Origin: an uncultured Verrucomicrobiota bacterium
GTDB lineage: Bacteria; Verrucomicrobiota; Verrucomicrobiia; Limisphaerales; SXQI01
Direction: 5' to 3'
DNA length: 64,000 nt
Assembly: GCA_964566945.1 (NCBI GenBank)
Contig: CAZMKE010000003.1
Span: 209,224-273,223, forward strand
This document shows, piece by piece, positions 9,918-35,512 of the stretch. Below the pieces are notes generated by a model. The model saw nothing but the letters and a program-made list of their open reading frames with translations, made no database searches and had not been told where the DNA came from. The position numbers were made by a program, and so were the translations under genes. Numbering within the stretch: the stretch's first letter is position 1; each line of letters starts with the position of its first letter.

Positions 9918-10040
9918 CATCTTAGAACGACTCTTGTTTAATCCGCATGAATTCGCTGCGATCTGTTGCGAAGGCTAAAAGTCTTCCGGGAATCGCAGCA
10001 CAGGCAGGGACGGCAATGGCAGAGGACGGACGGGCACAAT

Positions 10041-13094: not shown

Positions 13095-13273
13095 CGAATA
13101 GCGAATTGAGAATGATCAAAAACTTGGGATCACAACTCACGATGAGTTCGGGACGTGCTTGGGACGTGCAGCACCCGATCGCAAAAAGGCGTGCTGCTGC
13201 TCCTCTGAACCGTTCCGCGTTCCCTCCCTTGCCTAATTCCCCATTCGCCGTTCAAAATTCTTAATTCCCCAAG

Positions 13274-13795: not shown

Positions 13796-14098
13796 ATAGG
13801 GAATTGAGAATGACGAGTAGTGAATTAATAGGTCGGCGGCAACGCGCGTCCGACGGTCGACTCGATTTGCCGGAACGAACTTTCGCTTTCGGCTGCAGCG
13901 CCCTTAATTTGTGTCGCTTTCCCGACAAGTCCGCCGGCGGCCGGCCAGAGCCGCGCCGATGTTCTCAGCAAAATTTCGATCGCCCGCAAAGAAGCCCGCG
14001 AAACTCATTACTGGCTCCGCCTCCAAGCTAGTTCGGGACAAAGACCACCCAACTCACAATTCTTTATTCTTAATTCACTATTCCCAATTTTCCTCTAG
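13792..14098 (+). pseudogene. Decayed four-helix-bundle (23S rRNA intervening-sequence type) protein gene
   Basis: Frame 1 gives PERTFAFGCSALNLCRFPDKSAGG. A +1-shifted frame gives QSRADVLSKISIARKEARETHYWLRL, the hallmark C-terminal helix of this family. The central ~25 aa are missing and the two halves are out of frame. Confidence 0.6.
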
Positions 14099-14102
14099 CG
14101 CC

Positions 14103-17162: not shown

Positions 17163-17174
17163 AGTTCTACGGCA

Positions 17175-19916: not shown

Positions 19917-20034
19917 ATTGTTTGGAGTTTAACACAGCAGCCTTGAATATGCCCGGTGCGGAAAGAGCTTTAGTCTGTGTTGAGGCGGACCGGATACATG
20001 GGCGGTTTGCCGGCCGCTGCTTGGGCCGTAACCC

Positions 20035-22155
20035 ATGACCTTCCTCATCGCTGACACCTTCACCGAGAGCCTCGCCCGCCTCACTGGCGATGAGCAGAAA
20101 GCCGTGAAGACCACCGCCTTCGACCTCCAGCTGAATCCTGCCAACCCTGGACACCAGTTCCACAAGGTCGAACGCGCGAAAGACCGGAACTTCTGGTCCG
20201 TGCGTGTCGGCCGCGACGTGCGCCTGATCGTTCATCGCACCGCAGGAAGTCTTCTGCTGTGCTACGCCGATCACCATGACAAAGCTTATGACTGGGCCGA
20301 GCGACGCAAGCTGGAAACGCACCCCACCACCGGTGCGGCGCAGTTCGTCGAGATCCGCGAGCGCGTCCAGGAAATCGTTGTTCCGGTTTACATTGAGGAG
20401 AAGAAGCCAGCGGGAACCAATCCTCAGAAGTCCGAGAGGCCTCTGATCTTCGCTGGGATTCCCGATGCTGAACTGCTGAGCTACGGCGTTCCCCCGGAAT
20501 GGCTGAGCGACGTGAAGGGAGCGGACGAAAATTCCATCCTGGCGCTTGCCGAGCGGCTGCCCGCGGAAGCTTCGGAAGCGCTCCTGGAACTCGCTACTGG
20601 CGGCAAACCGCGCGTGCAACAGGTTGCCGCGCCAGCAGCGAGTCCTTTCGAACATCCGGACGCGCAACGCCGTTTCCGCATCCTAACGAACGTCGAGGAA
20701 CTGGAACGCGCTCTCGAATTCCCCTGGGACAAATGGACCATTTTTCTGCATCCGGAACAGCGGCAGTGGGTCGAACGAACTTACAATGGACCCGCACGCG
20801 TCTCGGGCTCGGCCGGCACGGGGAAAACTATTGTCGCACTCCACCGCGCTGTCTTCCTGGCCCGAGCCAATCCAAACGCGCGAGTGCTGCTGACGACCTT
20901 CTCGCATATCCTCGCGAACGCCCTCCGGACCCGCTTGCGTCGGCTCATCAGCAACGAGCCGCAACTGGCCGAGCGCCTTGAGGTGCATTCCATGAACGCA
21001 ATCGGAGGCCGTCTTTATAAGAGCACGTTCGGGCAAGCCGCCAACCTGGCGCCGCGAGAGGTCATCTCGGATCTCATCAAAGCCGCAGCGAAAGAAGCCG
21101 GCGAACATAAGTTCACCCACACGTTTCTCCTTTCGGAATGGGAGCACATCGTGGATGCCTGGCAACTGAGCACGTGGGAAAGTTACCGGGACGTCCAGCG
21201 CCTGGGCCGGAAGACACGGCTGCGAGAACCGGATCGCGCGATCCTATGGTGCATCTTCGAGAGAGTCCGCACCGCGCTGGCAGCGCGGAAAATGGTGACA
21301 GTGGCCCAAATGTTTACCGATCTGGCGGCGCGCCTCGGGAAAGGTCCCCAGAAGCCATTTGACTTCGCCGTGATCGATGAAGCCCAGGACGTGAGCATCG
21401 GCAGCCTTCGATTTCTCGCCGCCCTGGCCAGCCGCCCTGACGCGTTGTTCTTTGCCGGGGATCTCGGCCAGCGGATCTTTCAGCAACCCTTCTCCTGGCT
21501 CGCGCTCGGGGTCGACATCCGGGGCCGCGCGCGCACCTTGCGCGTCAATTACCGCACGTCACACCAGATCCGCACCCAGGCCGACCGGCTGCTGGGCCCG
21601 GAAATATCCGACGTGGACGGAAACCCGGAGAAGCGCACCGATACCGTGTCCCTCTTCAACGGCCCTCCGCCGGAAATCGAAACTTTCAAATCTCCGGAAG
21701 ATGAAAATTCGGCCGTGAGCGCCTGGATTTCCGCCCGGATGCAAGAGGGCATAGCGGCTCACGAAATCGCGGTTTTCGTCCGCTCCGAAGCCGAACTGCC
21801 CCGGGCCCGCGCGGCCGCCGAGAAATCCCAGCTCGCATTCGCAGTTCTGGACGACAAAGTGGAAACCAAGACGGGCCAAATCTCCCTTGGGACGATGCAC
21901 CTGGCCAAAGGCCTCGAATTCCGAGCGGTTGCGGTGATGGGGTGTGATGACGAAATCATCCCCCTGCAAAGCCGCATCGAAACCGTGGGCGAGGAGGCCG
22001 ACCTGAAAGAAATCTACGACACGGAACGCCAGTTGCTCTACGTCGCGTGCACACGCGCCCGTGATCGGCTGCTCATTACGGCTGTCCAGCCGGCATCCGA
22101 ATTTCTGGATGACCTCGAACCGAGTGGTGAAACGTTGTCTCCCTCTGAAGGCTAA
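20035..22155 (+). CDS. UvrD-like SF1 helicase with an N-terminal RelE/ParE-like domain (paralog 2)
   Basis: FLHPEQR, then Walker A SGSAGTGKTIV, VIDEAQDVS, NYRTSHQIR, KGLEFRAVAVMG and LLYVACTRARDRLL. N-terminal FWSVRVGRDVRLIVHRTAGSLLLCYADHHDKAYDWAERR is a RelE/ParE-like C-terminal signature. Confidence 0.85.
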   Translation: MTFLIADTFTESLARLTGDEQKAVKTTAFDLQLNPANPGHQFHKVERAKDRNFWSVRVGRDVRLIVHRTAGSLLLCYADHHDKAYDWAERRKLETHPTTGAAQFVEIRERVQEIVVPVYIEEKKPAGTNPQKSERPLIFAGIPDAELLSYGVPPEWLSDVKGADENSILALAERLPAEASEALLELATGGKPRVQQVAAPAASPFEHPDAQRRFRILTNVEELERALEFPWDKWTIFLHPEQRQWVERTYNGPARVSGSAGTGKTIVALHRAVFLARANPNARVLLTTFSHILANALRTRLRRLISNEPQLAERLEVHSMNAIGGRLYKSTFGQAANLAPREVISDLIKAAAKEAGEHKFTHTFLLSEWEHIVDAWQLSTWESYRDVQRLGRKTRLREPDRAILWCIFERVRTALAARKMVTVAQMFTDLAARLGKGPQKPFDFAVIDEAQDVSIGSLRFLAALASRPDALFFAGDLGQRIFQQPFSWLALGVDIRGRARTLRVNYRTSHQIRTQADRLLGPEISDVDGNPEKRTDTVSLFNGPPPEIETFKSPEDENSAVSAWISARMQEGIAAHEIAVFVRSEAELPRARAAAEKSQLAFAVLDDKVETKTGQISLGTMHLAKGLEFRAVAVMGCDDEIIPLQSRIETVGEEADLKEIYDTERQLLYVACTRARDRLLITAVQPASEFLDDLEPSGETLSPSEG

Positions 22156-22171
22156 TCGGCTCATCGAGGGG

Positions 22172-22652
22172 TCAAAGGGGAAGGAAGGCTTGGGGGAAAA
22201 AGCTCGGCGGGAGCATCGCTCCACCAGTTTGGAATGGTGGGCGTGATGATGGGGCGTGGACTGTGGGAGTGCCGGCAGGATGTTGATGGTCGCAATGTTC
22301 GGCCCCTTGCTGACGCGCGGGGCTCTGTTTGGGGGCGAGGGCTGAGGTCGTCCGGATTTGGGAGGTGTCTCCTGGCGAACCCCGATTGGAAGAAGGGCAC
22401 CGCTCGACCTGTTGACGCGAGGAACGGGAGGTGAGGGGTGGGTGCAGGCTGGTTGCGCGACCAACGACGCCCGGAAAGGAAATCGACGCAGCGGATGGTA
22501 GTGCGGTTCTTAGAGTCAGGGTTCGGCAGAGCCTCGCCCTCCCGAGGTTTGAAGCAAGGTCCTGCCGGGAGAAAAGAAAAAGCTCGGCGGAGCCTCGCTC
22601 CACCTTGGGGCTGGTGCAGTGGCCTGCTCGCTGACGCGCGCTCTGTGGGCGG
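22172..22652 (+). repeat. Two degenerate copies of dispersed intergenic repeat modules A and C
   Basis: 22172-22232 and 22500-22620 share GGTTCGGC(A/G)GAGCCTC(G/A)CCCTCC and AAAAAGCTCGGCGGAGCNCGCTCCAC with the copies at 27.6 and 33.5 kb. 22295-22335 and 22621-22652 carry the GCTGACGCGCG...CTCTGT module, also found at 33732-33775. Confidence 0.85.
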
Positions 22653-22749: not shown

Positions 22750-25700
22750 TTATGGCAGCAGCAAGCGGAAAAAACCTGCAGCGGAATCGTCCCGAACAAT
22801 AGGAATTACTTCGAGTGCGCCGGTCGCGACTGCGTTGGCAACGGCCGTCCAAGGGCCGCTGGGGGTGGGGGCGCGCTGCAGCTCCCAAGAGCGGCCTGCG
22901 ACCGCAGGAAACGTCAAACGAAATGAGTTTGCGTCGAACGGCGCGATCGTGATGGGGTCGGCCGCAAGGTCGAGGCGGCCAAGGATCAGTGAATGGCCGG
23001 CGAGCGCGACCACTCCGTCTCGCTCCCAAACGATGAGCCTGCGAACCAGGGAGTCCACGGGGACTTTGGCGGACCCGGAGAGAGCGCGCGTGGCGGTGCG
23101 AAAACCTTCGAAGTGGATCTGCGAGTTAATATGCGCCGCGAGAACCGCCTGCTGGCCATCCGCGCTTAACGCGAGGGCGTCTGGAGCGAACGCGGTGCTA
23201 AGGAAGGACGTCGGCAACTCTCCGCGGAACTCCAGCGTGGCCGCGTCATACAATTCGCCCGGCCAGACCAGCACGGTGTTCTGCGCTGACTCCAGCCCGA
23301 ACGTTCGGCCTCGGTTCGGCACATCGCCCCCGACCTCAAGACCGTCCGCAGTCAGGCGATACCTTTTTAGCTTATTCTCGACACCTGCCGGGTCACCGAC
23401 AGCCAGAATCTCGTGAGGCGTCGCGCCCGGCGTGATGAGCGTCACTCCATCCCAGCCGCCTGGAATATTGGAGGGTCGCGGCTGTCCGTCGTCATACACA
23501 TAAACACCCGCCCCGGACGGTTCGGCAGCGCCGTAGAGTGAAACGAACACGGTGTGCGCTTCATCTGGCGGCACGAGCATATCCACCTGGTACCACTGCC
23601 AGCTTTCGGGCACGAACGTGTTGAAGTTGAGGTCCAGGGTGAATTCGGGCAGCAGGCAGCGGACGATGCGCTGGCCGCCGTTCAGCGCCACGTAGAGAAA
23701 TTCGCTGCCGGCGCTCAGGGCCAGGCGCACGGGCTGTCCGGGAAGCCCAATCTCCCGATCGACATGTCCACTGACAGGGTCGACAACGTAAAGGTTCGTC
23801 GAGGGCGCAAAACCGTCTCCGTTCGCGCTGGCCACGTAAAGCTTGTGCGCAAGACGGTCGTAGACCACGTCGGAGCCCGCAAGGTCGAACGTTTCCAAAA
23901 CGCCCGGAAGACCGCTCGCTTCGACTTGGCGGACTAAACGCGCGTAATTGTTCGAACGGTTCGCGTCGATGGACTCCGAACGAACCGATCCGATGATTTC
24001 AGCGGAAGTGAACGCTTTGCCCGGCAGAGCGCTGACGGAAAAGTTTGTGATTGAACCCGCGGGCAGGGCGCCAAGATCCACGCTGAGCAGATTGACGGCG
24101 GCCGAGAGCACGTTCGCTCCTGTCACCTGGAGCGAGGTGAACCCTTCCGGGAAGCGCACATCCACGCGGGCGCGCTGAGCGTCATTTGGGCCGGCGTTCT
24201 CAACGGTGAAGGTCCATGTTCCCGGCGTTGCGACCCGCCAGGCGCCGTCCGAACTGATCGAGAGGCCCAAGTCAGCGGGTGGGGCTTTCTCGCTTCGGGC
24301 TCGCCGGACGAACACGAGATCGTTGTCGGCTGCCTGATAAGCCAGGGTCGCCGGGCCCGCCACGATCCCAGCGGTTACCGCGGGATTCAGGGGAAGCTGC
24401 ATCGTCTCGAGCGTCACCTGCGTGTCGAGGTCATACCCGGTCAATTGCGTGCTATCGCTCCGAAAGATGACCCGTTCCGCAGCGGAAATAAGGGATGTTC
24501 CAGAACCGGGAGCATTGCCGAGCAGCGTCAGCGTGCCGGTGTCGAGCATTCGGCCGTCCTGCGCTACAAAGACGCCAGCCCCGGCGTTCACGTGATTCAT
24601 TAGCGTCGGTCCGGCTTGCGTGAAAATGAACTGCTGTCCATCCCACCGAATCAGGGTCATCTGAAACGGCGAGTAATCTTGAGAAAGGACCAACTGGCTC
24701 TCACCGTACGCAACGAGTGGCGCATAAAACGCGTTGGTCCAGGCCAGCAGGTGTCCGTTCACAAAGAGGCCGAGCTTCCCATCCGCCTCCACAAAGAGTT
24801 GGTCCGGGTGGCCGGGGTTTGCGGCCATCCAGGATACCGTTTGTGTGACAGCGCCTTCGGGCATCGCGGAGCTGAACACGGCTTCAACCGAGCCTGAGGC
24901 GAGGCTGGCACGCGCAATATTCGCCCCGTGATCGATCGCCAAATACAACGTCTGACTGTCATCGGCGAGAGACATCGTGACCGCGTTTTCACCAAATTGG
25001 CTTGTTTTCGCAACGAGGCCTGTGGCCGGATCAATGGCGACAACGGCACCGTCGTATTTGCTTTGCGGAGGCGTAAGCGCAATGATCTGGTTTCGGATGG
25101 AATCATAGGCGATGGAGCTGACCGTAAACGCGCTCGGAGCGCTCTCACCGGGGGCCAGTTCCGTCACCACTGGCAGATCAAGAGCTGCCAGATTGTTGCT
25201 GCGGTTGAGATCCACGGAGGCGGTGGCGATCCCGGCTTCGAGATGCATCAGGTCGGCCGCGAGGAAGGCGCCAGTAATCCAGTTGGTGAGTGAATTGCCG
25301 GGCGGCAGGTCGAGATCTGCCCACGAGACCAGCTGCGGGGCCTGAAAGACTGTGCCGTAATACGGAGCGAATGGGGTGGTGTTCGTCATGGAAAATCCCG
25401 CTGGCAACTGCGCGGTCAGGCCGGCGCGCACCGCGGCGGGGCCGGGATTTGTAACGATCATCCGGATCGTTACTTTCTCGTTCAGCTTGGGCTGCGCGGG
25501 ATCGAGATCAATGCGAACGGACAGGTCGCTCCCAGGGTCCAGACGGAACGAGGGGCTGGAGACGATGGCCAGATCGCCGCCACTGATTTGCACGAGCACC
25601 CGGCCGTCGCCCAAATCCGCAACGGAATCCGCGAAGCCCTCCGTTTCGAGGGGAAGGGTTGCGGTTCGAGCGAGGGTGGTCCGGTCAAATACCTCCAGGG

Positions 25701-27174
25701 TGCCCAAGCCGGGGCCGCTGTGTTGCAAGTAAATCAACTGATCTGCGGTAGCGCGGTATTCGAGTTGCGCGGTGCTGGAATCGGTATCTGTGGGCACCTT
25801 ACGGAGAAGCTTGCCTGAACGGGGCGCTAACTCCTCGCTGCTGCCGCTGTACATCACTCCATTCACCATCAAGAAACCGACTGACACACGAGGCCGAACA
25901 TACCCGTCCCCGCGGCTAACGCCGGAGTCACTGATCAGCAGCGGCACAACATCGTTGGCCGGGTAGCCGGACAGATAAGCTTCCGTCGCGCCGTTGAACT
26001 TCATAGAAGCAGAAAATGCAAAGCCCAACGAAGGCAGCGCGAGGCTCTGCGAAATCTTTTGCCCGTCGCGGAAAAGAGAGACCGCGCCGCCCCCGCTGTT
26101 GACGCCAGCGGTCAGCACCAGGGTGGAATCTCCCGGCGAGACCTCGAAAGCCAGCAGCTTATTATCGGCGGGCCCAATGTCGTAAATGAGATTCGTTGTA
26201 TCGCCGATCAGATCAATTCGCATGGCGGATTGCCCGCCCAGCACCGCGCAATGGAGAAAGTGCCCGTCCGGGGAGAGCCGCAAAAACGACGCGAACCCGG
26301 GCAGAGTCGTGATTGGCACCGGCACGAGCCTGGCGGAGTCGAGCGCGAAGAGGACAGTATTGCTCGCCCCCGGTTGGTTCGCTTCGAGAGCGTAAATCAG
26401 CTTACGTGGCGCGCTCCAGGCTGCTTCACGGACGCCCGCGGCGAACCGTTCGATTACGCTCAATTCGCGTGAGTCGCCGAAAGCGTTTCGAGCCTCAACG
26501 TGCAAACGAACGATCGCGTTCGTATCGAACAGGATACTGGCTGACCCGGCGCCGTTGACCAACGCGACTTGGTTTGTGGCTCGCACCACGCCGGCGCTGT
26601 CCAGGAGCGAGAGAGCTGCCGCATAAAGCCCGTTGGTGAGCGGGGCGCCTTCCGGGTTGAGCGCTTGAAACGTGACCGTGCGAGGCTCCCCGGCCGTGTA
26701 AATGTCGGACGGGACCGAGACCTTGAAACTCGCCGGATCATCGTCCCCAATGATCGTTTGGGCTGAGCCAGCGGCGTAAGCCGGAGAGGTGGCGGCGAGC
26801 GTGATCACCATATTCGTCTCCGGAATGGCGTCATCGATCGGCCCAATATTGAAGAAGGCGTTGGTGTTTCCCGCGCGCACGGTGACAGAGGCTGGAAAAA
26901 GCAGTTGATCCGGCGGGACCGCGGCCAGTGCGACCACAACATCATTGGTGGTTCGTGCGGAAATGGAAACGACTCCCTTGTTCGTCTGAATGCCGCCGTT
27001 TTCGGCCATGAGCCCAGGAATCCGGAGAGAAATGGCAGCCCCGGAACTCATCCGGACCAAGACCAGCGAACACCCAATGAGCAAAAGCAACCCAGATCGA
27101 CAAAATGAAATTGCCGGAGAATACCTCAGCATAAATAAAGCCGCCCGAATAGCGCCGAGCCGCAGTCGGCTCAC
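22750..27174 (-). CDS. Giant secreted surface or adhesin-like protein (Calx-beta-like N-terminus, DUF11-type repeats, beta-propeller-like segments)
   Basis: 1474-aa ORF with an N-terminal hydrophobic signal. VTVRAGNTNAFFNIGPIDDAIPE is Calx-beta-like. Two NRSNN motifs (SVDLNRSNN, SIDANRSNN) are typical of the DUF11 conserved repeat. Ends in ...GFFRLLLP. Confidence 0.75.
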   Translation of the reverse strand: MSRLRLGAIRAALFMLRYSPAISFCRSGLLLLIGCSLVLVRMSSGAAISLRIPGLMAENGGIQTNKGVVSISARTTNDVVVALAAVPPDQLLFPASVTVRAGNTNAFFNIGPIDDAIPETNMVITLAATSPAYAAGSAQTIIGDDDPASFKVSVPSDIYTAGEPRTVTFQALNPEGAPLTNGLYAAALSLLDSAGVVRATNQVALVNGAGSASILFDTNAIVRLHVEARNAFGDSRELSVIERFAAGVREAAWSAPRKLIYALEANQPGASNTVLFALDSARLVPVPITTLPGFASFLRLSPDGHFLHCAVLGGQSAMRIDLIGDTTNLIYDIGPADNKLLAFEVSPGDSTLVLTAGVNSGGGAVSLFRDGQKISQSLALPSLGFAFSASMKFNGATEAYLSGYPANDVVPLLISDSGVSRGDGYVRPRVSVGFLMVNGVMYSGSSEELAPRSGKLLRKVPTDTDSSTAQLEYRATADQLIYLQHSGPGLGTLEVFDRTTLARTATLPLETEGFADSVADLGDGRVLVQISGGDLAIVSSPSFRLDPGSDLSVRIDLDPAQPKLNEKVTIRMIVTNPGPAAVRAGLTAQLPAGFSMTNTTPFAPYYGTVFQAPQLVSWADLDLPPGNSLTNWITGAFLAADLMHLEAGIATASVDLNRSNNLAALDLPVVTELAPGESAPSAFTVSSIAYDSIRNQIIALTPPQSKYDGAVVAIDPATGLVAKTSQFGENAVTMSLADDSQTLYLAIDHGANIARASLASGSVEAVFSSAMPEGAVTQTVSWMAANPGHPDQLFVEADGKLGLFVNGHLLAWTNAFYAPLVAYGESQLVLSQDYSPFQMTLIRWDGQQFIFTQAGPTLMNHVNAGAGVFVAQDGRMLDTGTLTLLGNAPGSGTSLISAAERVIFRSDSTQLTGYDLDTQVTLETMQLPLNPAVTAGIVAGPATLAYQAADNDLVFVRRARSEKAPPADLGLSISSDGAWRVATPGTWTFTVENAGPNDAQRARVDVRFPEGFTSLQVTGANVLSAAVNLLSVDLGALPAGSITNFSVSALPGKAFTSAEIIGSVRSESIDANRSNNYARLVRQVEASGLPGVLETFDLAGSDVVYDRLAHKLYVASANGDGFAPSTNLYVVDPVSGHVDREIGLPGQPVRLALSAGSEFLYVALNGGQRIVRCLLPEFTLDLNFNTFVPESWQWYQVDMLVPPDEAHTVFVSLYGAAEPSGAGVYVYDDGQPRPSNIPGGWDGVTLITPGATPHEILAVGDPAGVENKLKRYRLTADGLEVGGDVPNRGRTFGLESAQNTVLVWPGELYDAATLEFRGELPTSFLSTAFAPDALALSADGQQAVLAAHINSQIHFEGFRTATRALSGSAKVPVDSLVRRLIVWERDGVVALAGHSLILGRLDLAADPITIAPFDANSFRLTFPAVAGRSWELQRAPTPSGPWTAVANAVATGALEVIPIVRDDSAAGFFRLLLP

Positions 27175-27549
27175 TCAAATACTTAGCCCCAAAACAAGCG
27201 TCTCAAGAGCGTAGAATTTGAAGTGTAAGCCGGTCAATTACAAACTGATAGGTCTGAACCTTACATTAGTTCCGTTTCTTCTCCGCTCTCGAACTGGGAT
27301 TCAGGCGATCTGTCCTATTCGCGGCCCCTCCGAAAAGCGCGACCCGACGATCCGCATCCATTACGACAGAAATCCTTTGGTTGGGCGCGAGGATTCTGGT
27401 TGGCCGCCGTGAGGCTCGAATGCGCCCTAAACCAGCGTCTGAGGAGCTTTATGCGAGAACCAATTTGGTGCTGGGCTTTTCCGTTTCTACCTCGGAAATG
27501 CCGGTGGGGATTTGCTTCCCACCAGCGATTTCGGGCCACAGGAACGGAT

Positions 27550-27920
27550 GCAATAGACGTTCGGACGGTTCATAAAGTTAGGGTTCGGCGGAGCCTCACC
27601 CTCCCGGGGATGGCGGGGGCTAAAGGGGAAGCAAGGTGCCTGGGTGAAAAAGCTCGGCGGAGGCTCGCTCCACTTTGGGCTGTGGCTGGGAACTTCTCCG
27701 AAGTTCTTGGAGAACGCTGCGTAATTCCGCTGGCCTGGTGCGTTTTAGGGCGCGGTTTGGCTAGGTGGATTGGCCGATGACCGATCGCCGTCGTTGGTTG
27801 GGCAGGGCGTCTCAGAAATCGATTGGGTTTTCGTTTTATTTCGGTGGTGGAGGGAGAACAGCGGCGCTCTGACGAGACGCCGCTACAGTGTTTTTGGGGG
27901 GGCGGCGGGTGGGCTAACGG
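27550..27920 (+). repeat. Full composite copy of the dispersed repeat (module A 27550-27679, module B 27680-27920)
   Basis: Module A is nearly identical to 33522-33655. Module B is ~80% identical by eye to 35156-35403. Confidence 0.9.
27860..27895 (+). terminator. Hairpin plus T-run inside repeat module B (terminator-like)
   Basis: AGCGGCGCTC-TGAC-GAGACGCCGCT (10-bp stem, 1-nt bulge), then ACAGTG TTTTT. The same hairpin occurs at 35338-35362. Confidence 0.35.
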
Positions 27921-28020
27921 TTTGACGGGGTGCGTCCTTCCGTTTCGAGACGCCTTGCCTCTCGTCAAACGCTCTTGTCGAGGGGCTTGAACTGAACGCA
28001 AACTGAGACAGCTTGGTCCT

Positions 28021-28695
28021 ATGCTTATCAGCCATCTTTGCCGGTTTATTTATCTCAAGACAAGGAAGACGGCGGGAACTTCGGTGGAGATCTATTTCGA
28101 ACCGTATTGTGTAGATCTGAAAAGCTACTTCGGGGAGGCGGAGGGCCGGCCGGCGGCGATCTCGGCGCAGGGCGTGGCCGGTTCGCGGCTCGGTTCTGCG
28201 GACCCACGGTGGTACAATCACATGCCGGCGGAAGAAGTGCGGGAACTGGCCGGGCGGGAGACCTGGGAGGCTTACTACAAGTTTTGTGTGATTCGCAATC
28301 CTTTCGACAAAGTGGTCTCATTCTTCTGGCATGAGGCTTCGGAACAGGCCCGAGTCCAGCTCGGGTCCGCCGATTTCAGCGATGTCCGCCGCACGTTCGC
28401 CGCTTGGACGGAATTGGAGCGCTTTCCTGTGGACCGGGGAATCTACACGATCGGCGGGATGCCTGCGGTCGATCGGTTTCTCCGTTACGAACAGTTGTCG
28501 GAGGACCTGCGGGAGATTTGTGGGAGGTTGTCCCTTCCCTGGCAACCTGCCCGGCTGGGCCGGTACAAAGGCGAGTTCCGGAAACGTGCGGAACCCTTTG
28601 AGGAATACTATACGGTGGAGGCTGCCGCCCGGGTGGCCAAGGCGTTCGCCTGGGAGCTCGAGTATTTTGGGTATCCCAGCTGCGGGCCGCGGTAG
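28021..28695 (+). CDS. Sulfotransferase family protein
   Basis: 5'-PSB-like loop IYLKTRKTAGTSV and 3'-PB-like motif FCVIRNPFDKVVSFFWH. Size of ~220 aa. Confidence 0.8.
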   Translation: MLISHLCRFIYLKTRKTAGTSVEIYFEPYCVDLKSYFGEAEGRPAAISAQGVAGSRLGSADPRWYNHMPAEEVRELAGRETWEAYYKFCVIRNPFDKVVSFFWHEASEQARVQLGSADFSDVRRTFAAWTELERFPVDRGIYTIGGMPAVDRFLRYEQLSEDLREICGRLSLPWQPARLGRYKGEFRKRAEPFEEYYTVEAAARVAKAFAWELEYFGYPSCGPR

Positions 28696-28712: not shown

Positions 28713-29717
28713 TCAACGACCGGTCCGCGCGCGCAGTGCGAGATAGGCCGATTGCGCCCACCGCTGGGCCGCCGCTTTTGCCCCCCGTTCCGCCTGCCGC
28801 CGCTTCTCCGCGCGATCGTCCTGATACTGAAGCAAATGAAAAGGGTCCTTGGAGTAGGTGCGAAACACGCGGCGCTCGAAGGCCTCTGGCAGGTCGAGGC
28901 CGAAGAAGGCCGCTATGGCCCGGATTCGCTTGGGCAGGAGTTCCTCATAGTCGATGATCTGGCAGCCGTCGTCGGCCGATTCGAGAGCCGCCTCGAGATG
29001 TCGTGACAGCAGCCGGGCGCAGTACTCCTCGTCGGGCATCTCCTCCGGCGGTTGGGGCGGATTGCGCCAGCCGTACAGATCCTCCACTTGCGCAGCACTC
29101 TTGTAAGCCAGCCAGCCCCGTTCGTTCAGGCTGGAGACCAGAACTTCGGCGGGCTCGCGTATCAGGACAACGCAGGGCGTTTCGGGCCAGCATTGGCGCA
29201 CAAAGCGCATCGCGAAAAGATTCAAGCTGCAAAACTTGATCACGAGCTTTTCCGGTTGGCCGGTGCGATAGCAGGCAAAGAGCCGGAAGAGCGCTTCGAA
29301 AAGCCTCCGTCGCGCATCGCCCCAGCGGGCGCGAAGGTAAGGAGACGAGGCCTCCGGGTACCAGCGAGCCAGACGCACAAAGGCTCCGGCCTCCGCAGCC
29401 ACCAGAGCGCCGGGAGCATTCTTGAGCGCGTTTGCGACGAGCGTGGAGCCACAATGAGAAACATGAAAGATGAAGCCGGCAGGCCGGACCGGGGGGAGCC
29501 GCTCGCTCCAGGCCAGCATGGCCTCGATGGAAGTATCCAGCTCCGCCGCGGCCGGGCTGGCGTTTCGGAGCTTCTCCACGGTCTGATGAAAAAAAGGCTC
29601 TGCCAGGGGCTCGGCCCCAAACTCCATCCAGCGCACCGCGCCGCCCGGGACCAAGGCTGGGTCGGGATCAAACTCAAAATCGAGTGGCAGCCAGCCGGCT
29701 GTGGGCAGTGTCCTCAT
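28713..29717 (-). CDS. Sulfotransferase-fold protein (divergent)
   Basis: FIFHVSHCGSTLVANAL (PSB-like loop) and VVLIREPAEVLVSS (3'-PB-like R-x-P-x-x-x-x-S). Its start overlaps the upstream stop by 4 nt (ATGA). Confidence 0.6.
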   Translation of the reverse strand: MRTLPTAGWLPLDFEFDPDPALVPGGAVRWMEFGAEPLAEPFFHQTVEKLRNASPAAAELDTSIEAMLAWSERLPPVRPAGFIFHVSHCGSTLVANALKNAPGALVAAEAGAFVRLARWYPEASSPYLRARWGDARRRLFEALFRLFACYRTGQPEKLVIKFCSLNLFAMRFVRQCWPETPCVVLIREPAEVLVSSLNERGWLAYKSAAQVEDLYGWRNPPQPPEEMPDEEYCARLLSRHLEAALESADDGCQIIDYEELLPKRIRAIAAFFGLDLPEAFERRVFRTYSKDPFHLLQYQDDRAEKRRQAERGAKAAAQRWAQSAYLALRARTGR

Positions 29718-30694
29718 GAATGAGCCTGCTCGGGCGCTTGAAAGGCAACGACCCGGTCCCGGGATAGGGCCGCCAGAAAGAGGGCCAGGTCTTCGTGCTC
29801 GAATTCGTTCTTGAACTGGCTGTAAAACTCCGCCATCGCCACCGGAGCCCGGTCCAGGATGTACTGCAGCAAAGGTGCGGCATCAGCCGGGAAAAGCAGC
29901 TCCTTGCCGCCTGCGGTTAAGTAAACGGTGTCCCGATCGCGCCGAAAGATTTTTGGAACGCGCGGCGTAGCCAGCACGATGGAATGATCCGGCGGCAGGT
30001 CTTCACTCCAGGCCCGGCCGGGCGGTGGATGGAGAGGGGCGAGTCGATTGAGGCGGCGCGCATGGGCTTCCAGCAGGCCTGGTGTCCGAAATGCGCCCCC
30101 AAACGCCCTGCGCAATTTCGCCAGGTAGGCGACTTGAGTGGAGAGGCTGGCAAAACGCGGAATATCCGTCTGAAAAACCTCGGAATCCTTCATCTTGTCT
30201 GCCAGCCAGAGCAGCAGGTCGGCTCCGGTCGGGTTCCGGATATGGAAAAACCAGCTCACGGTTGGCTGGTCCAAAGGATGAGCGGAGCGCCACCAGCTCC
30301 GAGGCAGATACAAAGTGCCTCCGGTTTCAAGCCGGGCCTCCCAACCGGGCGCCTCGGTGGCTTGCGCGTCACTGCCGTAAGTCCTCCAACTGGTTGGTCC
30401 GGCCACCTGGAGCACGATCAGGTCCTGCTCGGCCCGGTACGGCTCGCTGACATTCCAATCGCGCACCCGTTCCGGCCGCAGGGGCGCTTCGAGATGGCGT
30501 TCCAGGCTCCAGGCCAGTCCGAGGGCGGGAGAGCAGGTCGCGCATTCCCCACAGGAGCATTCCGCCGCCCGCGGACCCGACTCGAGGAAATCAAAACGAC
30601 CGGCCGTTCCCGGCGAGTGCAACGGCCCGGCGCCGTAATAGTCCCCCAAGAACTCCGGAACGGGGACCGGCTCGAAAATAGCGCCGAGATTCAT
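29714..30694 (-). CDS. JmjC/cupin-4 (RoxA/YcfD-like ribosomal-oxygenase fold) protein with substituted catalytic residues
   Basis: PYRAEQDLIVLQVAGPTSWRTY aligns by eye to the cupin-4 core PHxDxxDVFxxQxxGxKxW. GGTLYLPRSWWRSA aligns to GDxLYxPxGxxH. The C-terminal LFPADAAPLLQYILDRAPVAMAEF...LALFLAALS resembles the YcfD winged-helix domain. N-terminal Cys cluster CSCGECATC. Confidence 0.7.
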   Translation of the reverse strand: MNLGAIFEPVPVPEFLGDYYGAGPLHSPGTAGRFDFLESGPRAAECSCGECATCSPALGLAWSLERHLEAPLRPERVRDWNVSEPYRAEQDLIVLQVAGPTSWRTYGSDAQATEAPGWEARLETGGTLYLPRSWWRSAHPLDQPTVSWFFHIRNPTGADLLLWLADKMKDSEVFQTDIPRFASLSTQVAYLAKLRRAFGGAFRTPGLLEAHARRLNRLAPLHPPPGRAWSEDLPPDHSIVLATPRVPKIFRRDRDTVYLTAGGKELLFPADAAPLLQYILDRAPVAMAEFYSQFKNEFEHEDLALFLAALSRDRVVAFQAPEQAHS

Positions 30695-32079
30695 GCGGCC
30701 GGCCCGCCCGCACTTATCATTTCCGCCAGCTCACGATCTGAGACCCGGCGCTTCCGGACAGATGCGTGCGCGATCAGATAATCGATCGTTCGCTCTTCAA
30801 GTTCAGCGCCAGAGGCCGCAGGAATTCCAAATCGGCGCGCGAGTTCGGCGACGATCAATCCGAGGCGGAGGCGGCGCTCGGCTATGCTTCGAAACTGGCT
30901 TTCGATCGAGGCGCGTTCGGCGGCTTCCTCCGGAATCACCCCTCCGTCGGACTGTGCCGCCTTCAAGAGCGCCTGGAACTCGACGTCGACCACTCCCGGA
31001 AACAGTGGGATCGAATAGCGACTGTCCAGATGGTTCAGCACCTGCAGCGCGAGATGCCTGCGCAGGAAGGCGGCCTGATCCGGAGCCGGGTTGTCCGCGA
31101 CCAGCTGCTCGATGATGACGCTCGAAAAATCGGGCGCGGGCAGATCCGGCAGATGGGTGGCCACGACCGCCATCTCCAACGCGCCCGAGTCCTCGCCCGC
31201 CGTCAGGTTGCAACTGGACGCGACGCTACCGGCCGGCAGGCCTTGCTGCATGGAGTGCACCGCCAAGCGCTTAAGCGCCCATGCTCGCGCCTCGTTGCCG
31301 TAACGTTCCTGCAGGACAGCGTGAGGAATCTGGCCCGGCCGGAAGCCCGGCAAACGGATGCGGCGGCCGATCTCTTGCAGGCGTGCGTCGACAGCCTGCG
31401 CCACGGCCGCCTCGCCGCAGCGACCCCGATACTCACGCCGGGCGCCTTCCCGGCTGGTCTCCTCCCAGACTGCAAGGTTTCCCGGCGGGCGGGAGGGCTC
31501 TGCCGCCGCTGCGGCGCTCTGAGTTGGGGGGGGCGAATCGGAGCGCTCGAGTTTGTAGGCAACCGAGACGCGCAGCACCTTACAGGCACGACTCGGCGCC
31601 TTGCCGCAATGAGGAATGCGCCCATCGAAGAACACCGCGCGGTTCGGGCGGGGCCTGACCGCCAGTGCGATTTCGCCCGCGGCGTCGTAGAATACCGTCT
31701 CGCCATCCCAGCCGTCGTGCCATTCGGGATTTGGGTAGTAGAGCAGCGTAAAGTTGCCCGGCTTGCTGTCATCAACGTGGGTCTCGCCGCCCAATCCATA
31801 GGTATGGCCGTTTGCGTACTGGCGGACCACCCGGAGCGGCCCTCCGGCAAGCTTCTCGCAACGGCTCCGAACAAGCTCCCAGATGGCCTGGAACGCGGCG
31901 TCTCCTTCCAAATCCATGCGCCAGAAGCGCGGGCTTTCCCCTTCCACCGACCCGTGGCCGAAGTGCCAGCCCTTTCCCATGCACGTCGCCCAAGCCGCGG
32001 CGTGCAGATGCGGCGGGGCCAAATCGTCCAGGACTTCCACCAGGGGTTCGAAAGAGTCTGTGTCAGGGTGCGGCTGCAA
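30691..32079 (-). CDS. Fusion protein: N-terminal 2OG-Fe(II) oxygenase plus trigger-factor N- and C-domains (no PPIase domain)
   Basis: Oxygenase: ETHVDD (HxD), RIPHCG (distal His), LRVSV (Arg). From aa ~225, AVDARLQEIGRRIRLPGFRPGQIPHAVLQERYGNEARAWALKRL parallels E. coli Tig [41 protein letters not shown], including the GFRxGxxP motif (nt 31324-31347). The C-terminal AERRLRLGLIVAELARRFGI resembles the Tig C-domain. Confidence 0.8.
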   Translation of the reverse strand: MQPHPDTDSFEPLVEVLDDLAPPHLHAAAWATCMGKGWHFGHGSVEGESPRFWRMDLEGDAAFQAIWELVRSRCEKLAGGPLRVVRQYANGHTYGLGGETHVDDSKPGNFTLLYYPNPEWHDGWDGETVFYDAAGEIALAVRPRPNRAVFFDGRIPHCGKAPSRACKVLRVSVAYKLERSDSPPPTQSAAAAAEPSRPPGNLAVWEETSREGARREYRGRCGEAAVAQAVDARLQEIGRRIRLPGFRPGQIPHAVLQERYGNEARAWALKRLAVHSMQQGLPAGSVASSCNLTAGEDSGALEMAVVATHLPDLPAPDFSSVIIEQLVADNPAPDQAAFLRRHLALQVLNHLDSRYSIPLFPGVVDVEFQALLKAAQSDGGVIPEEAAERASIESQFRSIAERRLRLGLIVAELARRFGIPAASGAELEERTIDYLIAHASVRKRRVSDRELAEMISAGGPAA

Positions 32080-32722
32080 AGCGAATCAGGTTTTGGTAGG
32101 CCTTGGAAAGGAGCAGCGAAAGGTCCGGGCGATTCAACTGATCCACAGTCGTTGAGGCTCGGGCCAGGTCGTAGAGAATGGTGCGGAGGTGTTCGTCGCG
32201 AACGGCGCTCTGAATCCAAGTAACTGCTGCGAGCCGGGTCCCGCGGGTCACCGGCGCCACGTGATGAACCGATGTGGCGGAGTAGACGATTGCCTCGCCG
32301 GCATCCAGCTTGATCTCGTCTCCCCCCTCGATAACCAGTTCACCTCCATCATAACTCTCGGGAGGGCTGAGGAAAAGCGTCATTGCGAGATCGGTCCGAA
32401 TGCCGTTCGGACCTCCCATCAGTCCGCCGTCAACATGGTCGCCGTATCCCATCCCTGGTTCATAGCGGCTGAAAAGTGGCAACACCCAGCATTTGGGCAG
32501 GGCGAAAGTCTGAAAATCGCGATGCCGTTTCATGGCCTGGTCCACCAGGGCATCGAGCGCGTTGGAATCTTTTGCCCCTCGTTCGACTTGAAGGTTGTTT
32601 TTGACCTGGGCTGCACCTCCGCCGGCGGTGGCTTTCCCGTTGACAAAAGTCCGCTGTCTTAATGCGCGGACAGCCTGTTCCGTCTCCTTCCTGTCCAGCA
32701 GGCGAAAAACCTCCCGATGCAT
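32063..32722 (-). CDS. PKHD-type Fe(II)/2OG-dependent hydroxylase (YbiX/PiuC family)
   Basis: Collinear by eye with E. coli YbiX: NGKATAGGGAAQVKNNLQ, GDHVDGG, TDLAMTLFLSPPESYDGGELVI, SVHHVAPVTRGTRLAAVTWIQS. Confidence 0.9.
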   Translation of the reverse strand: MHREVFRLLDRKETEQAVRALRQRTFVNGKATAGGGAAQVKNNLQVERGAKDSNALDALVDQAMKRHRDFQTFALPKCWVLPLFSRYEPGMGYGDHVDGGLMGGPNGIRTDLAMTLFLSPPESYDGGELVIEGGDEIKLDAGEAIVYSATSVHHVAPVTRGTRLAAVTWIQSAVRDEHLRTILYDLARASTTVDQLNRPDLSLLLSKAYQNLIRFAAAP

Positions 32723-32752: not shown

Positions 32753-33316
32753 CTACTGCACTTTTGGGTGCTTTCGGCGCCACACCAAGGCTCCCGCAAG
32801 GGTCAAACCGCCGGCCACTAAAGCTGTTTGGGACGGTTCTGGCACCACCGTTGCCGTCAGGTCCATTTGATAGTTGTTGCTCAGGGCGGCATTTTTCCGA
32901 ACGAACAGTTGTCCGTCCGACGGAACGACTCCATTTACTGAGCCGCCCAAGCCTTCCAGAGTCGCGGACCCTAAGGAGGCCTGGCTGCTGTTGAAAACCG
33001 TGAAGCTGCTGCCTTTTTCCTGACCTAGAGGGTTATAAGTGCCGCGAAGAGAGAACGAGGTGCCCGACGCGAGGTTGGAGAACTCAAACCAATCAGTGTC
33101 CGAGCCACCATCTGTTCCTCGGACGGTGGTTGTTCCTGTTGGCAGAGCATAGGCGAGCGCAAAAGAATTGCCAAAATCTGAGGGCGCCGGGCTTGTTCCT
33201 TCGATGATGACTTGACCGGAAGAACTAACTCCGCTCATCGTCCCAAGGCACGTGGTGGCGAGGAGGGTTCGCGTAAAACGGCTCTCAAAAAAGCCAGTCG
33301 ATATCGTGGTGGTCAT
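32753..33316 (-). CDS. PEP-CTERM sorting-domain protein with a PPC (pre-peptidase C-terminal)-like domain
   Basis: C-terminal VPEPSQTALVAGGLTLAGALVWRRK (PEP motif, TM helix, basic tail). GSDTDWFEFSNLASGTSF is a PPC-like motif. Its stop lies 30 nt upstream of the hydroxylase start on the same strand. Confidence 0.85.
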   Translation of the reverse strand: MTTTISTGFFESRFTRTLLATTCLGTMSGVSSSGQVIIEGTSPAPSDFGNSFALAYALPTGTTTVRGTDGGSDTDWFEFSNLASGTSFSLRGTYNPLGQEKGSSFTVFNSSQASLGSATLEGLGGSVNGVVPSDGQLFVRKNAALSNNYQMDLTATVVPEPSQTALVAGGLTLAGALVWRRKHPKVQ

Positions 33317-33396: not shown

Positions 33397-33775
33397 GTTC
33401 GGCAGAGCCTCACCCTCCCGGCGAGGCGGTGCGAGGCGGGAGTATCACCGGAATTTTTTTGACCCGCGGAAATGCGGATGGGGATTCGCTTCACCAACGA
33501 GGTCGGGCAACAAGAACGGAAGCAATAGACATTCGGACGGTTAATAAAGTTGGGGTTCGGCGGAGCCTCACCCTCCGGGGGGCGGCGGGGGCCAAAGGGG
33601 AACCGAGGTGCTTGGGTGAAAAAGCTCGGCGGAGCCCCGCTCCACCTTTGGAGTGGTGGCAAAGGAGGAACCAAAATAAGTCCGAACCTGGGGGGGAAGG
33701 TGTGGGAAAGTTGGAAGGTTCGGGACGAGTGAGATGTTCGGCCACTTGCTGACGCGCGCCTATAGGCTCTGTTGG
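33397..33775 (+). repeat. Dispersed repeat copies: partial module A at 33397-33426, full module A at 33522-33655, module C at 33732-33775
   Basis: GCAATAGACATTCGGACGGTTAATAAAGTTGGGGTTCGGCGGAGCCTCACCCTCC...AAAAAGCTCGGCGGAGCCCCGCTCCAC, nearly identical to 27550-27679. Confidence 0.9.
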
Positions 33776-33955
33776 GTGTCTCTGTGTTCCTTGGCATGGA
33801 TTCGCCACCTCAACTCTGTCCGGTCGGCTTGGCGGGGCGCAGAAGACACGGGCCGTGTCAGCCAGAGTGACAGTCGACAGGGCGACGAAAACGAGGAAGG
33901 ACCAAGCCCGGCGGGCTCGGTCCTTGCAAGGCACCCTTCTGGTCGAGGGTTGAGT

Positions 33956-34801
33956 TTAGGTCAGCGCGCGACGAGCAGCCAAGAGGCCTGCCAAACCTAT
34001 GCCCAGTAACCCAAAGCAAGAACTGGAATCCGGCACTCCATGACCGGTATCCTGGCGCTGCTCGTAATCGACCGAGAGATCCTCAATCAATCGATAATTG
34101 TCCGGCGGAATTGGGCCACCCAGGTTTAGCACGCCGATTTCCAAACCGGTAACGCCATCGTACTCGTGCAGCTTGCTGTTAAAAATGTCTGACACCCAGA
34201 AGTTGCTTCCATCATACGCGATGCCAGTGGCCTGGTAGGCGGTTTGAATGAAGTTCGCGGTCAAGACATTGCCATTCGTGTCGTAAATATCGTAATTGTG
34301 CCCTGCGTCTTCACGATTGACGATTAGCTTGCCGTTAAAGTACTCCATCCCGTCCATGTTGTTTGAGGCCAGCGAGAAGGTGACCGTCTTGATATTGTTT
34401 CCGGTGACAGGATCAATCTGGAAACCTTTGTTTGAGCCGGAGTAGTCGGTGGTCCAAAACGTCGAACCGTCCCAGGCGATCGTGGACATGCTGGCATTCT
34501 GCGTCAAAATGGAGCCCAGCGAGAGTCCGGTTGTAATGTCCGTCTTGTAGATGTGGGGGTCACCCACAACTGTCGAATAAAGAACGTTGCCGACAACGAC
34601 AACGCCGCGACCGTTTCCGACTGAAGGGTTGTATTGAACCAGTTTTACCCCCGTCGACGTGTCGAACTTCTCCACGTAGTCTCCGGAACCACTGGCGTTG
34701 TTTCCGTAGATGGTTTGTGCTGCTTTGGCTGAGGCAAGTCCCGCCAACGCAGTGCCTGCTAAAAGAAAAGCGATCTTGTTCATACGGTTTGTAGCGGGCA
34801 T
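33956..34801 (-). CDS. PEP-CTERM-type secreted beta-propeller-like repeat protein
   Basis: Signal peptide MNKIAFLLAGTALAGLASA. Repeated DG(S/T)xFW..D blades. C-terminal VPDSSSCFGLLGIGLAGLLAARR is a PEP-CTERM variant. Confidence 0.8.
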   Translation of the reverse strand: MPATNRMNKIAFLLAGTALAGLASAKAAQTIYGNNASGSGDYVEKFDTSTGVKLVQYNPSVGNGRGVVVVGNVLYSTVVGDPHIYKTDITTGLSLGSILTQNASMSTIAWDGSTFWTTDYSGSNKGFQIDPVTGNNIKTVTFSLASNNMDGMEYFNGKLIVNREDAGHNYDIYDTNGNVLTANFIQTAYQATGIAYDGSNFWVSDIFNSKLHEYDGVTGLEIGVLNLGGPIPPDNYRLIEDLSVDYEQRQDTGHGVPDSSSCFGLLGIGLAGLLAARRALT

Positions 34802-35155
34802 TATTCATGCCAAATCGGAGATCGCTGTGGGGCAAGCGGTTAGTAAAATGTGCGAATGGTGATCTGTTTTAAATTGTAAAAATCGGTTACGTTTTTGATT
34901 ATCTGGACGGCTCTAGCAGGGGGGGGAGGAGAGTGGGAAAGCGTCCATGCATTACTTATATATTGTCGATCGTTGAGCAAAATCCGTGGATTAAATTTGC
35001 GACGCGGCGGTGCCTCCAGCTCAATAATGCTGCTTCCCTAAATGGTCCGAGGAAGAGTGATGGCATCGCGTCGCTTCTATATTGCTGCATTCGAAGCAAA
35101 ATATGTGGGTTCAGTGTGATTGGGAAAGGCATCATGGTGCTCGCGCGACGGCACT

Positions 35156-35403
35156 GGGTTGCGGCTGGGAACTTCTCCGAAGTGTCTGGAGAACGCCGCG
35201 TGATTTTGCCGCCGGATTCGTTTTTCGGCGCGGTTTGGATGGGGGGATTGGTGGATGACCGATCTCCGTCGTTGGTTGGGCAGCGAGTATCAGGAATTGA
35301 TTTGGTTTTCGTTTTGTTTCGGTGATGGAGAAAGAACAGCGGCGCTCTGACGAGACGCCGCTACCGTGTTCTTGCGGGGCGGCGGATGGGCGGGGGTTTA
35401 ACG
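35156..35403 (+). repeat. Dispersed repeat module B, second full copy
   Basis: GGCTGGGAACTTCTCCGAAGT...GATGACCGATC.CCGTCGTTGGTTGGGCAG...GAACAGCGGCGCTCTGACGAGACGCCGCTAC is shared with 27680-27920. Confidence 0.9.
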
Positions 35404-35512
35404 GGCGTCGCTGGCTTGCTGCCAGGGGGCGGCGATGTGAGCAGTGATGCCGGGGTTGTGGCTCGCGACGGCGAGGGTGGAGCCGTCCGGACTGAAGGCG
35501 GCGGCGAACGGG

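Follow-up and report, generated by a model that had tools for sequence, protein, structure and literature searches.

An oxygenase–trigger factor fusion encoded in a compact cassette with a predicted secreted client protein

Closest described systems and comparison with the fusion

Trigger factor (TF) is regarded as a generalist chaperone. Its paralogue PceT is encoded in an operon and binds the signal peptide of an exported client (PMC10624902), and in other bacterial operons containing 2-oxoglutarate (2OG) oxygenases and sulfotransferases, hydroxylation followed by sulfation of co-encoded secreted proteins has been predicted (Iyer et al., 2010; PMC2938197). The gene investigated here lies in a 64-kb window (the whole stretch of DNA analysed, 64,000 nt of contig CAZMKE010000003.1 from an uncultured Verrucomicrobiota bacterium, to which all positions refer) and occupies 30691..32079 on the minus strand, with a TTG start at 32079. 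It encodes a protein of 462 aa in which a 2OG-Fe(II) oxygenase is fused to the N- and C-domains of TF (Oxy::TF(N+C), hereafter the fusion), and it belongs to a small cassette that also encodes a predicted client, a secreted protein with the fold of pre-peptidase C-terminal (PPC) domains and a PEP-CTERM tail. The interpretation favoured here, for which we consider the chances about even, is that the fusion is a client-dedicated TF paralogue with its own enzyme, and that a single secreted surface protein is modified by the operon while still in the cytoplasm, ahead of Sec export. An initial annotation of the sequence knew of no described enzyme of such architecture, and the literature searches carried out here likewise found no description of the fusion, of standalone TF(N+C) genes, of the client family or of the cassette. 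The domain families and the concept of a client-dedicated TF paralogue are known; new are the fusion of an enzyme to TF, its connection with a PEP-CTERM/PPC client and the co-translational hydroxylation that this implies.

In comparison with Tig, the fusion has the same N-domain fold, the GFRxGxxP loop, the C-domain helices including the AERRxRLG helix, and the C-terminal strand and helix, and its N-then-C order is that of the 'TF-NC' fragment, which keeps chaperone function. Unlike Tig, it has no FKBP/peptidyl-prolyl isomerase (PPIase) domain and no equivalent of TF residues 365-399, it carries an oxygenase of 180 aa on its N-terminus via a flexible linker, and its gene is part of a rare accessory operon rather than of a housekeeping context. 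Similarly to PceT/RdhT of organohalide respirers, the fusion is a TF-derived protein encoded in the operon of one exported client, on which it would act as a chaperone before translocation. However, PceT reportedly keeps the PPIase and C-domains and has no ribosome-binding N-domain (Maillard et al., 2011), and compared with this the domain loss is reversed in the fusion family, which keeps the N- and C-domains and loses the PPIase; furthermore, the client is of the Sec type and not of the Tat type, and modifying enzymes are either joined to the chaperone in one protein or encoded as its partners.

The oxygenase half resembles the PHD/P4H-type hydroxylases (PHD2/EGLN, PPHD, PiuC/YbiX, OGFOD1/Tpa1; PF13640) in having a double-stranded beta-helix, the HxD...H ligands and an Arg for the 2OG C5-carboxylate, whereas no known member of these or of the FlmC enzymes is fused to a chaperone or a ribosome-docking module. 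Enzymes placed on an unfolded chain before folding or export, as is proposed for the fusion, include PDF, MAP and the collagen prolyl 4-hydroxylase of the endoplasmic reticulum (ER), which works on nascent procollagen, but PDF and MAP bind the ribosome through elements of their own and process all chains, and we know of no bacterial enzyme that borrows the TF docking domain or serves a single client. The operons of Iyer et al. (2010) are similar in that 2OG dioxygenases and sulfotransferases are clustered with a secreted, non-enzymatic putative substrate and that collagen-like proteins are found near relatives; the full cassette follows their logic but differs from them in enzyme families and client, and has the TF module in addition. 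In PMC2938197 neither a TF module nor a PEP-CTERM/PPC client is described, and 'trigger factor' and 'chaperone' have 0 occurrences.

Domain composition, conservation and distribution of the fusion

Pfam searches of the fusion detected 2OG-FeII_Oxy_3 (PF13640) at aa 92-165 (E 1.9e-8; 35.6 bits against a gathering score of 27), Trigger_N at aa 209-325 (E 1.4e-12) and Trigger_C at aa 344-420 (E 8e-6), the latter two also above their gathering scores, with profile positions 26-110 of 162 covered for Trigger_C. FKBP_C gave no match in the fusion even at E <= 0.1, and PF00254 was found in 0 of the 120 listed homologues. The oxygenase domain (aa 14-179; 31543..32040, minus strand like all parts of the gene), supported by Pfam, NCBIfam, invariant columns and fold matches, contains HVDD at aa 101-104 (31768-31779) with the ligands H101-x-D103, RIPHCG at aa 154-159 with H157 (31609-31611), and LRVSV at aa 169-173 with the 2OG-binding R170 (31570-31572). 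It is followed by a Pro/Ala-rich linker (aa 180-203; 31471..31542) and by a TF N-terminal domain of the ribosome-binding type (aa 204-327; 31099..31470), which has the TF signature loop GFRPGQIP, the motif docking TF on uL23, at aa 245-252 (31324..31347) and QERYG at aa 257-261. The shortened TF C-domain (aa 328-462; 30694..31098), which contains AERRLRLGLIVAELARRFGI at aa 400-419, comes directly after the N-domain with no PPIase between. The initial annotation had already read from the sequence the full set of oxygenase ligands, a TF N-domain whose docking motif precedes QERYG, a Tig C-domain-like arm and the lack of an FKBP/PPIase segment, and each of these is borne out, the motif positions exactly and the arm as a reduced domain. 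Regarding the start, the conserved MxPxP N-terminus of homologues supports the TTG codon, whereas Met34 was chosen by one gene caller for the near-copy P0001 (429 aa).

A profile made from 115 homologues aligned to residues 7-85 (E 7e-13) and 240-429 (E 6e-8) of Escherichia coli TF and skipped the linker and PPIase segment of that protein, residues ~131-240 having no counterpart in the fusion. Among NCBIfam models, the FlmC family (NF052475) was nearest to the oxygenase half (6.9e-19, model positions 83-179 only), and with 68.6 bits against a cut-off of 240 the fusion is a relative of this family and not a member. The model nearest to the rest of the protein was tig (TIGR00115), with 66.6 bits against an equivalog cut-off of 180.2, and the fusion, having a score below this cut-off, no PPIase and a reduced C-domain, is not a member of Tig either.

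The AlphaFold2 (AF2) model, which had the homologue alignment as input, reached a mean pLDDT of 91.5 with disorder limited to linker residues 187-199 (pLDDT < 50), and contains a beta-sandwich oxygenase, a beta-beta-alpha-loop-alpha-beta-beta TF 'tail' domain and five helices in this order, passing from the TF N-domain straight into the C-domain. Its top match among PDB entries (Foldseek) was ribosome-bound E. coli TF (2vrh_A, E 1.7e-8), followed for the oxygenase half by PiuC, 3dkq, PHD2 and PPHD (TMt ~0.6 for these four), Trichoplax PHD, P. putida P4H and OGFOD1. Profile searches and a structure model had been suggested as checks on the initial annotation, and both lead to TF. The fold of the fused oxygenase is PHD-like and not JmjC, unlike that of the ribosomal oxygenase (ROX) family (YcfD/RoxA, NO66, MINA53), and according to the model it is within the prolyl-hydroxylase structural clade.

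Residues H101, D103, H157, R170, P244, G245 and G249 are invariant in the 115 homologues, and because the first four of these are the ligands, the fused oxygenase should be active; L243, F246, R247 and P252 are conserved to >= 90%. Mean column entropy is 0.58 bits in the loop at aa 241-252, compared with 0.97 in the oxygenase core, 1.78 in the TF C-domain and 1.91 in the rest of the TF N-domain, and in the linker, the length of which varies from ~10 to 75 aa, it is 3.2 bits. Judged by these values, the most strongly protected TF segment is the loop that contacts uL23 in real trigger factors, and its conservation pattern matches that of genuine TFs; among the computational arguments for docking on the ribosome this one is the strongest, although it is not proof.

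The same loop bears on an alternative, in which the TF(N+C) module never docks and works post-translationally, off the ribosome, as a client-specific holdase or recognition module, similar to PceT or to the recognition elements of ribosomally synthesized and post-translationally modified peptides (RiPPs), binding the signal peptide or the complete, unfolded preprotein for presentation to the hydroxylases. The C-domain is the main chaperone module of TF and free TF is also a holdase for secretory precursors; moreover, PceT provides a precedent for TF paralogues that bind signal peptides, and the client association described below fits this alternative as well. Nevertheless, the family keeps its N-domain, reportedly unlike PceT-type paralogues, and conserves the uL23-docking loop above even the oxygenase core, for which a pure holdase has no obvious need, and we regard an off-ribosome function as rather unlikely.

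Regarding distribution, a protein search gave 206 matches to the fusion, and among the 120 listed all were 45-65% identical over the full length except the near-copy P0001 (99%). Almost all of these 120 have PF13640 and PF05697 (with or without PF05698), and their existing source names are 'SM-20-related protein', 'trigger factor' or 'hypothetical' only; more than 200 auto-annotated members are thus already present in databases. The full-length fusion was detected in at least 21 genomes in a scan of ~185,000 species genomes (one genome per species), the counts being lower bounds limited by the search patterns. Carriers are mostly Acidobacteriota (Bryobacterales, Solibacteraceae, Terriglobia), the others being Rudaea sp. 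3F27F6 (Gammaproteobacteria), an Acetobacteraceae metagenome-assembled genome (MAG) and a Prosthecobacter MAG, and the architecture thus spans Acidobacteriota, Verrucomicrobiota and Pseudomonadota. A survey of Planctomycetes-Verrucomicrobia-Chlamydiae (PVC) genomes had been suggested, but the centre of the family's distribution is in Acidobacteriota and not in PVC bacteria. When the TF half alone was compared with a library clustered at 50% identity, ~30 clusters were found at E <= 1e-30 and ordinary trigger factors appeared only from E ~1e-20. No canonical tig was found in the 64-kb window, where TF queries matched only the fusion open reading frame (ORF).

The objection, raised with the initial annotation, that two genes might have been joined by a local assembly error or a frameshift is ruled out by the more than 200 homologues, the spread over three phyla and the presence of the whole cassette, nearly identical, in an independent Logan assembly. 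Nothing was found in support of such an artefact, though separate TF(N+C) genes do exist in some genomes; the same continuous architecture in independent sequences from many assemblies and the confident AF2 prediction of both halves make its probability practically negligible. The agreement of domains, fold and invariant residues greatly exceeds what chance would give.

Organisation of the cassette, its variants and its predicted client

The cassette is compact and translationally coupled. The predicted client, a secreted PPC-fold PEP-CTERM protein of 187 aa with the signal-peptide core RTLLATTCLG, is encoded at 32753..33316 on the minus strand, and 30 nt downstream of it follows a gene for a PKHD-type (YbiX/PiuC-like) Fe(II)/2OG dioxygenase (32063..32722, minus strand; NF003974, E 2.2e-64) in which the ligand set H.D...H...R is conserved. 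The fusion ORF overlaps the PKHD stop by 17 nt, and an ATGA overlap connects it to the gene of a JmjC/ribosomal-oxygenase-like cupin (29714..30694, minus strand), which is in turn connected by ATGA to the gene of a Sulfotransfer_3-like sulfotransferase (28713..29717, minus strand) with an H-x-S-x-C-G-S-T-L loop. A second sulfotransferase gene, Sulfotransfer_2 (28021..28695, plus strand), encodes a K-T-x-K-T-A-G-T-S loop, is convergent with the operon, passes the Pfam threshold and stands on either side of the cassette in other genomes. The HxSxCGSTL loop of the Sulfotransfer_3-like protein is invariant and 8 of its 10 orthologues match PF13469; no sequence relatives in PDB were found for either sulfotransferase, the assignments resting on Pfam and the 3'-phosphoadenosine 5'-phosphosulfate (PAPS) loop motifs. 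A strong terminator was found only upstream of the cassette (13-bp stem, 33897-33925), 3' of a gene for a VPDSG-CTERM protein.

The JmjC-like protein matches the profiles of YxbC, MINA53, NO66 and YcfD. Its iron ligands HxD...H are lost, neither HxD nor the distal His being conserved in 11 orthologues, and LYLPRSWWRS in the window protein takes the place of LYLPRGLWHS in YxbC. A role as third active hydroxylase is ruled out by this loss, and the protein is probably a non-catalytic pseudo-enzyme or adaptor beside the active oxygenases.

The neighbours were compared by tblastn with other loci encoding the TF module, and the same gene order was found in Acidobacteriota, Rudaea, the Acetobacteraceae MAG and the Prosthecobacter MAG. 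The PKHD gene adjoins the TF module in 35 of 38 loci, while the JmjC-like and sulfotransferase genes are present in ~15 'full' cassettes and in none of the 'short' ones. Since the flanks are wholly different between genomes, the cassette behaves as a small horizontally mobile unit.

Members of the client family have a signal-peptide core R-x-L-L-[AT]-T-T-C-L-T followed by DFxN, LPxGT, DxFxFxGL and VPxDG motifs and usually a PEP-CTERM tail. The motif RxLL[AT]TTCLT was counted ~30 times in the 38 cassette loci, as against 2 matches in control loci unrelated to the cassette (1.04 Mb) and a single one in the 64-kb window, and a client with the signal motif was found in nearly all TF-module loci having enough upstream sequence. 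Among three phyla this core hardly varies, a degree of conservation that is not usual in signal peptides. None of the curated PEP-CTERM subfamilies reaches its cut-off on the client proteins, and a word-indexed search for client homologues returned 9 matches only, the family diverging fast. The client model, of moderate quality (core pLDDT 80-90), is a beta-sandwich, the closest fold being that of the clostridial collagenase collagen-binding/PPC domain (TM ~0.72-0.78 on target). The client of Rudaea sp. 3F27F6 (locus L008, 6438-7292) consists of two tandem PPC-like repeats without a PEP-CTERM tail, and the cassette is therefore not strictly dependent on exosortase sorting. A tyrosine in a G-Y-[AL]-L-P motif of the client was present in 6 of 11 full (sulfotransferase-bearing) cassettes and in 0 of 9 short ones; the correlation is weak and this residue as a possible sulfation site is a lead rather than a claim.

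Variants of the cassette indicate which of its parts belong together. In split cassettes (L068, L070, L071, L072, L082), which also have the client, the PKHD gene is directly followed by a gene for a standalone TF(N+C) protein of 250-285 aa with no FlmC-like domain, for example at 5947-6798 of L071, where its ATG overlaps the PKHD stop, and this standalone form was also detected among representative proteins (P0123, P0126, P0128, P0131, P0139, P0146). On a 36-kb contig, an independent gene call places a 224-aa oxygenase after the client and a 252-aa Trigger_N+Trigger_C protein after this oxygenase, and locus L013 has the client followed by the fusion with PKHD absent. In the reverse look-up, starting from client homologues, all three informative contexts have an oxygenase gene followed by a further gene, which encodes a complete standalone TF(N+C) protein in one and is cut by the contig end, without domain call, in two; a fourth context was uninformative. 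Placement in an operon beside a single exported client, as for PceT, thus holds in almost all loci and in both directions. The TF(N+C) module follows the secreted client and not the fused oxygenase, and because of the split and PKHD-less variants the elements common to all are the client, TF(N+C) and one or more PHD-like oxygenases. Downstream of the minimal cassette of L071 (6990-9050) lies a gene for a TMTC-like multi-pass membrane protein with tetratricopeptide repeats and a DUF1736/O-mannosyltransferase-like match, which could be coincidental or could be another client-modifying enzyme.

Relatives of the fused oxygenase were also found near other secreted proteins. Its standalone orthologues are 50-59% identical and usually paired with a PKHD paralogue, and in Myxococcota they are located directly downstream of genes for small secreted collagen-like proteins of lipoprotein type (L034, 7047-7490 and 7510-7956; L040, 7534-7983; L045, 592-1176; L046, 1322-1747), which contain GPQ/GPA triplets and, at the C-terminus, a conserved domain with CFTP[PT]x at its end. 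These loci are candidates for a bacterial collagen-like prolyl-hydroxylation system, and since orthologues of the fused oxygenase adjoin collagen-like proteins, hydroxylation of co-encoded secreted proteins, most simply at proline, is suggested. Loci of more distant FlmC-like oxygenases in Sphingomonadales and Xanthomonadales encode proteins in which a double-glycine-type leader, MRELxxxELxxVxGG, precedes G/D/Y/W-rich repeats (L051, 244-999 and 1590-2393; L052, 5395-6324; L055, 3161-3709; L057, 6648-7175; L060, 6129-6965 and 11038-11880), and these proteins may be another class of secreted substrate.

These contexts also bear on the two roles put forward in the initial annotation, hydroxylation of nascent chains during translation or of a ribosomal protein near the tunnel exit. 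The first fits, and the likely substrate is the co-encoded PPC-fold/PEP-CTERM client. In the second, the TF module would park the oxygenase so that uL23, uL29, uL24 or another component of the ribosome or translation machinery is hydroxylated, for which YcfD/RoxA, OGFOD1/Tpa1 and PPHD, acting on uL16, uS12 and EF-Tu, are precedents; the fold is nearest to the prolyl-hydroxylase clade that includes PPHD and OGFOD1, the neighbours are PKHD-type and ROX-like, and the docking motif is kept. This role is disfavoured because the TF module persists without the fused oxygenase and tracks the secreted protein, and because standalone oxygenases stand beside collagen-like proteins. Moreover, a rare and patchy cassette in unrelated flanks is unlike ribosome maintenance, sulfotransferases and a secreted client would have no role, and the ROX-like neighbour is without iron ligands, so that we hold ribosomal hydroxylation to be very improbable.

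Alternatively, the compound that is hydroxylated and sulfated might not be a protein but, for example, an exopolysaccharide or a small molecule, with the PEP-CTERM protein and the TF-like module merely co-regulated. PEP-CTERM systems are linked to exopolysaccharide production, relatives of Sulfotransfer_2 are often carbohydrate sulfotransferases, and PKHD/YbiX/PiuC proteins are without an established substrate. However, sugar-pathway genes are absent from minimal cassettes, in which the client and TF(N+C) are accompanied by a single oxygenase only; the fusion of a polypeptide chaperone module to the enzyme argues for a polypeptide substrate, as do the oxygenase orthologues beside collagen-like proteins, and this alternative appears improbable.

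Predicted mechanism, further features of the window and implications

The interpretation of the cassette as a client-dedicated modification system starts from the observed anatomy of the fusion, its intact catalytic residues, the conservation of the docking loop, the operon structure and the two-way association with the client; from these we infer ribosome binding, signal-peptide recognition, target residues, chemistry and the order of steps. First, the TF N-domain would park the protein at the ribosomal tunnel exit via the GFRxGxxP loop, and the oxygenase, attached by a variable linker (~10-75 aa) to the N-terminus of the TF tail domain, would be held near the exit port. The cradle of the reduced TF C-domain would then capture the emerging preprotein, possibly via the conserved signal peptide, the invariant core of which is a natural candidate for the recognition element, and keep it unfolded and off the export machinery. 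The tethered PHD/P4H-like oxygenase and the PKHD oxygenase would hydroxylate side chains, most plausibly of proline, and in full cassettes the two PAPS-type sulfotransferases would modify the client further, with the ligand-less JmjC-like protein as adaptor. Finally, export of the modified client would follow, with exosortase processing of those clients that have a PEP-CTERM tail. Modification is placed before export because the client has a Sec-type signal peptide and the oxygenases and PAPS-dependent sulfotransferases are cytoplasmic, and the TF(N+C) module would suit the cassette because it would combine the two activities needed, attachment at the tunnel exit and retention of a chain in the unfolded state. 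In its most specific form, that of a ribosome-tethered, client-specific hydroxylase which selects its client as RxLL[AT]TTCLT exits the tunnel, so that the client is hydroxylated and in some lineages sulfated before export, the proposal is put forward only tentatively.

Several points weigh against this interpretation. Residues 365-399 of the C-domain of E. coli TF, reportedly part of 'arm 2' in the structure of Ferbitz et al. (2004), have no counterpart in the fusion according to the profile alignment, and a cradle function of the reduced C-domain is uncertain. The pTM of the AF2 model is 0.64, leaving the relative placement of oxygenase and TF module undefined, and the conserved signature loop could serve a different interaction. 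In the client, conserved acidic and Asn residues might bind Ca2+, as in clostridial collagen-binding domains, and would then not be modification sites; the Sulfotransfer_3 match of the window protein in Pfam is weak (E 0.0048), and a few loci (L010, L081) are without a recognisable client.

Regarding the remainder of the window, the cassette is flanked by minus-strand genes encoding a DUF11-repeat surface protein of 1474 aa (22750-27174) and a protein of 281 aa with a VPDSG-CTERM sorting signal (33956-34801), the latter signal being a hint of verrucomicrobial origin. A dispersed intergenic repeat of ~470 nt, without a match in Rfam and with terminator-like hairpins on the minus strand, is present as a whole element at 27480-27950, upstream of the Sulfotransfer_2 gene. 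Its left half (33464-33651, 87-88% identity) is located upstream of the client gene and its right half (35155-35405, 83-86%) beyond the VPDSG-CTERM gene, so that the halves bracket this gene and direct copies flank the cassette; further pieces are at 22168-22224 and 22504-22609. The region 9966-22155 has a lower G+C content (0.53-0.54 at 14-20 kb, ~0.60-0.65 elsewhere) and genes encoding a ResIII/endonuclease protein, a large N6_N4 DNA methylase and two UvrD-like helicases, and looks like a horizontally acquired restriction-modification/defence island.

To our knowledge, no modifying enzymes beyond PDF and MAP are stationed at the bacterial ribosomal exit, and none is for a single client. If the docking loop works as in TF, the ribosome-binding module of TF would be a portable address tag attached to an enzyme. 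If the interpretation holds, bacteria would hydroxylate, and perhaps sulfate, a surface protein co-translationally, as collagen is modified in the eukaryotic ER, and with the cassette a TF-derived machine for co-translational modification would be known for the first time, together with a new pathway by which bacterial surface proteins are hydroxylated and sulfated. It would also give a handle on the function of PKHD/YbiX/PiuC proteins, on the chemical modification of PEP-CTERM/exosortase cargo and on the reason for the sequence conservation of a signal peptide. The system is compact (3-6 genes), and as Rudaea sp. 3F27F6 is probably a cultured isolate (it has a strain name and no MAG label), it should be directly testable.

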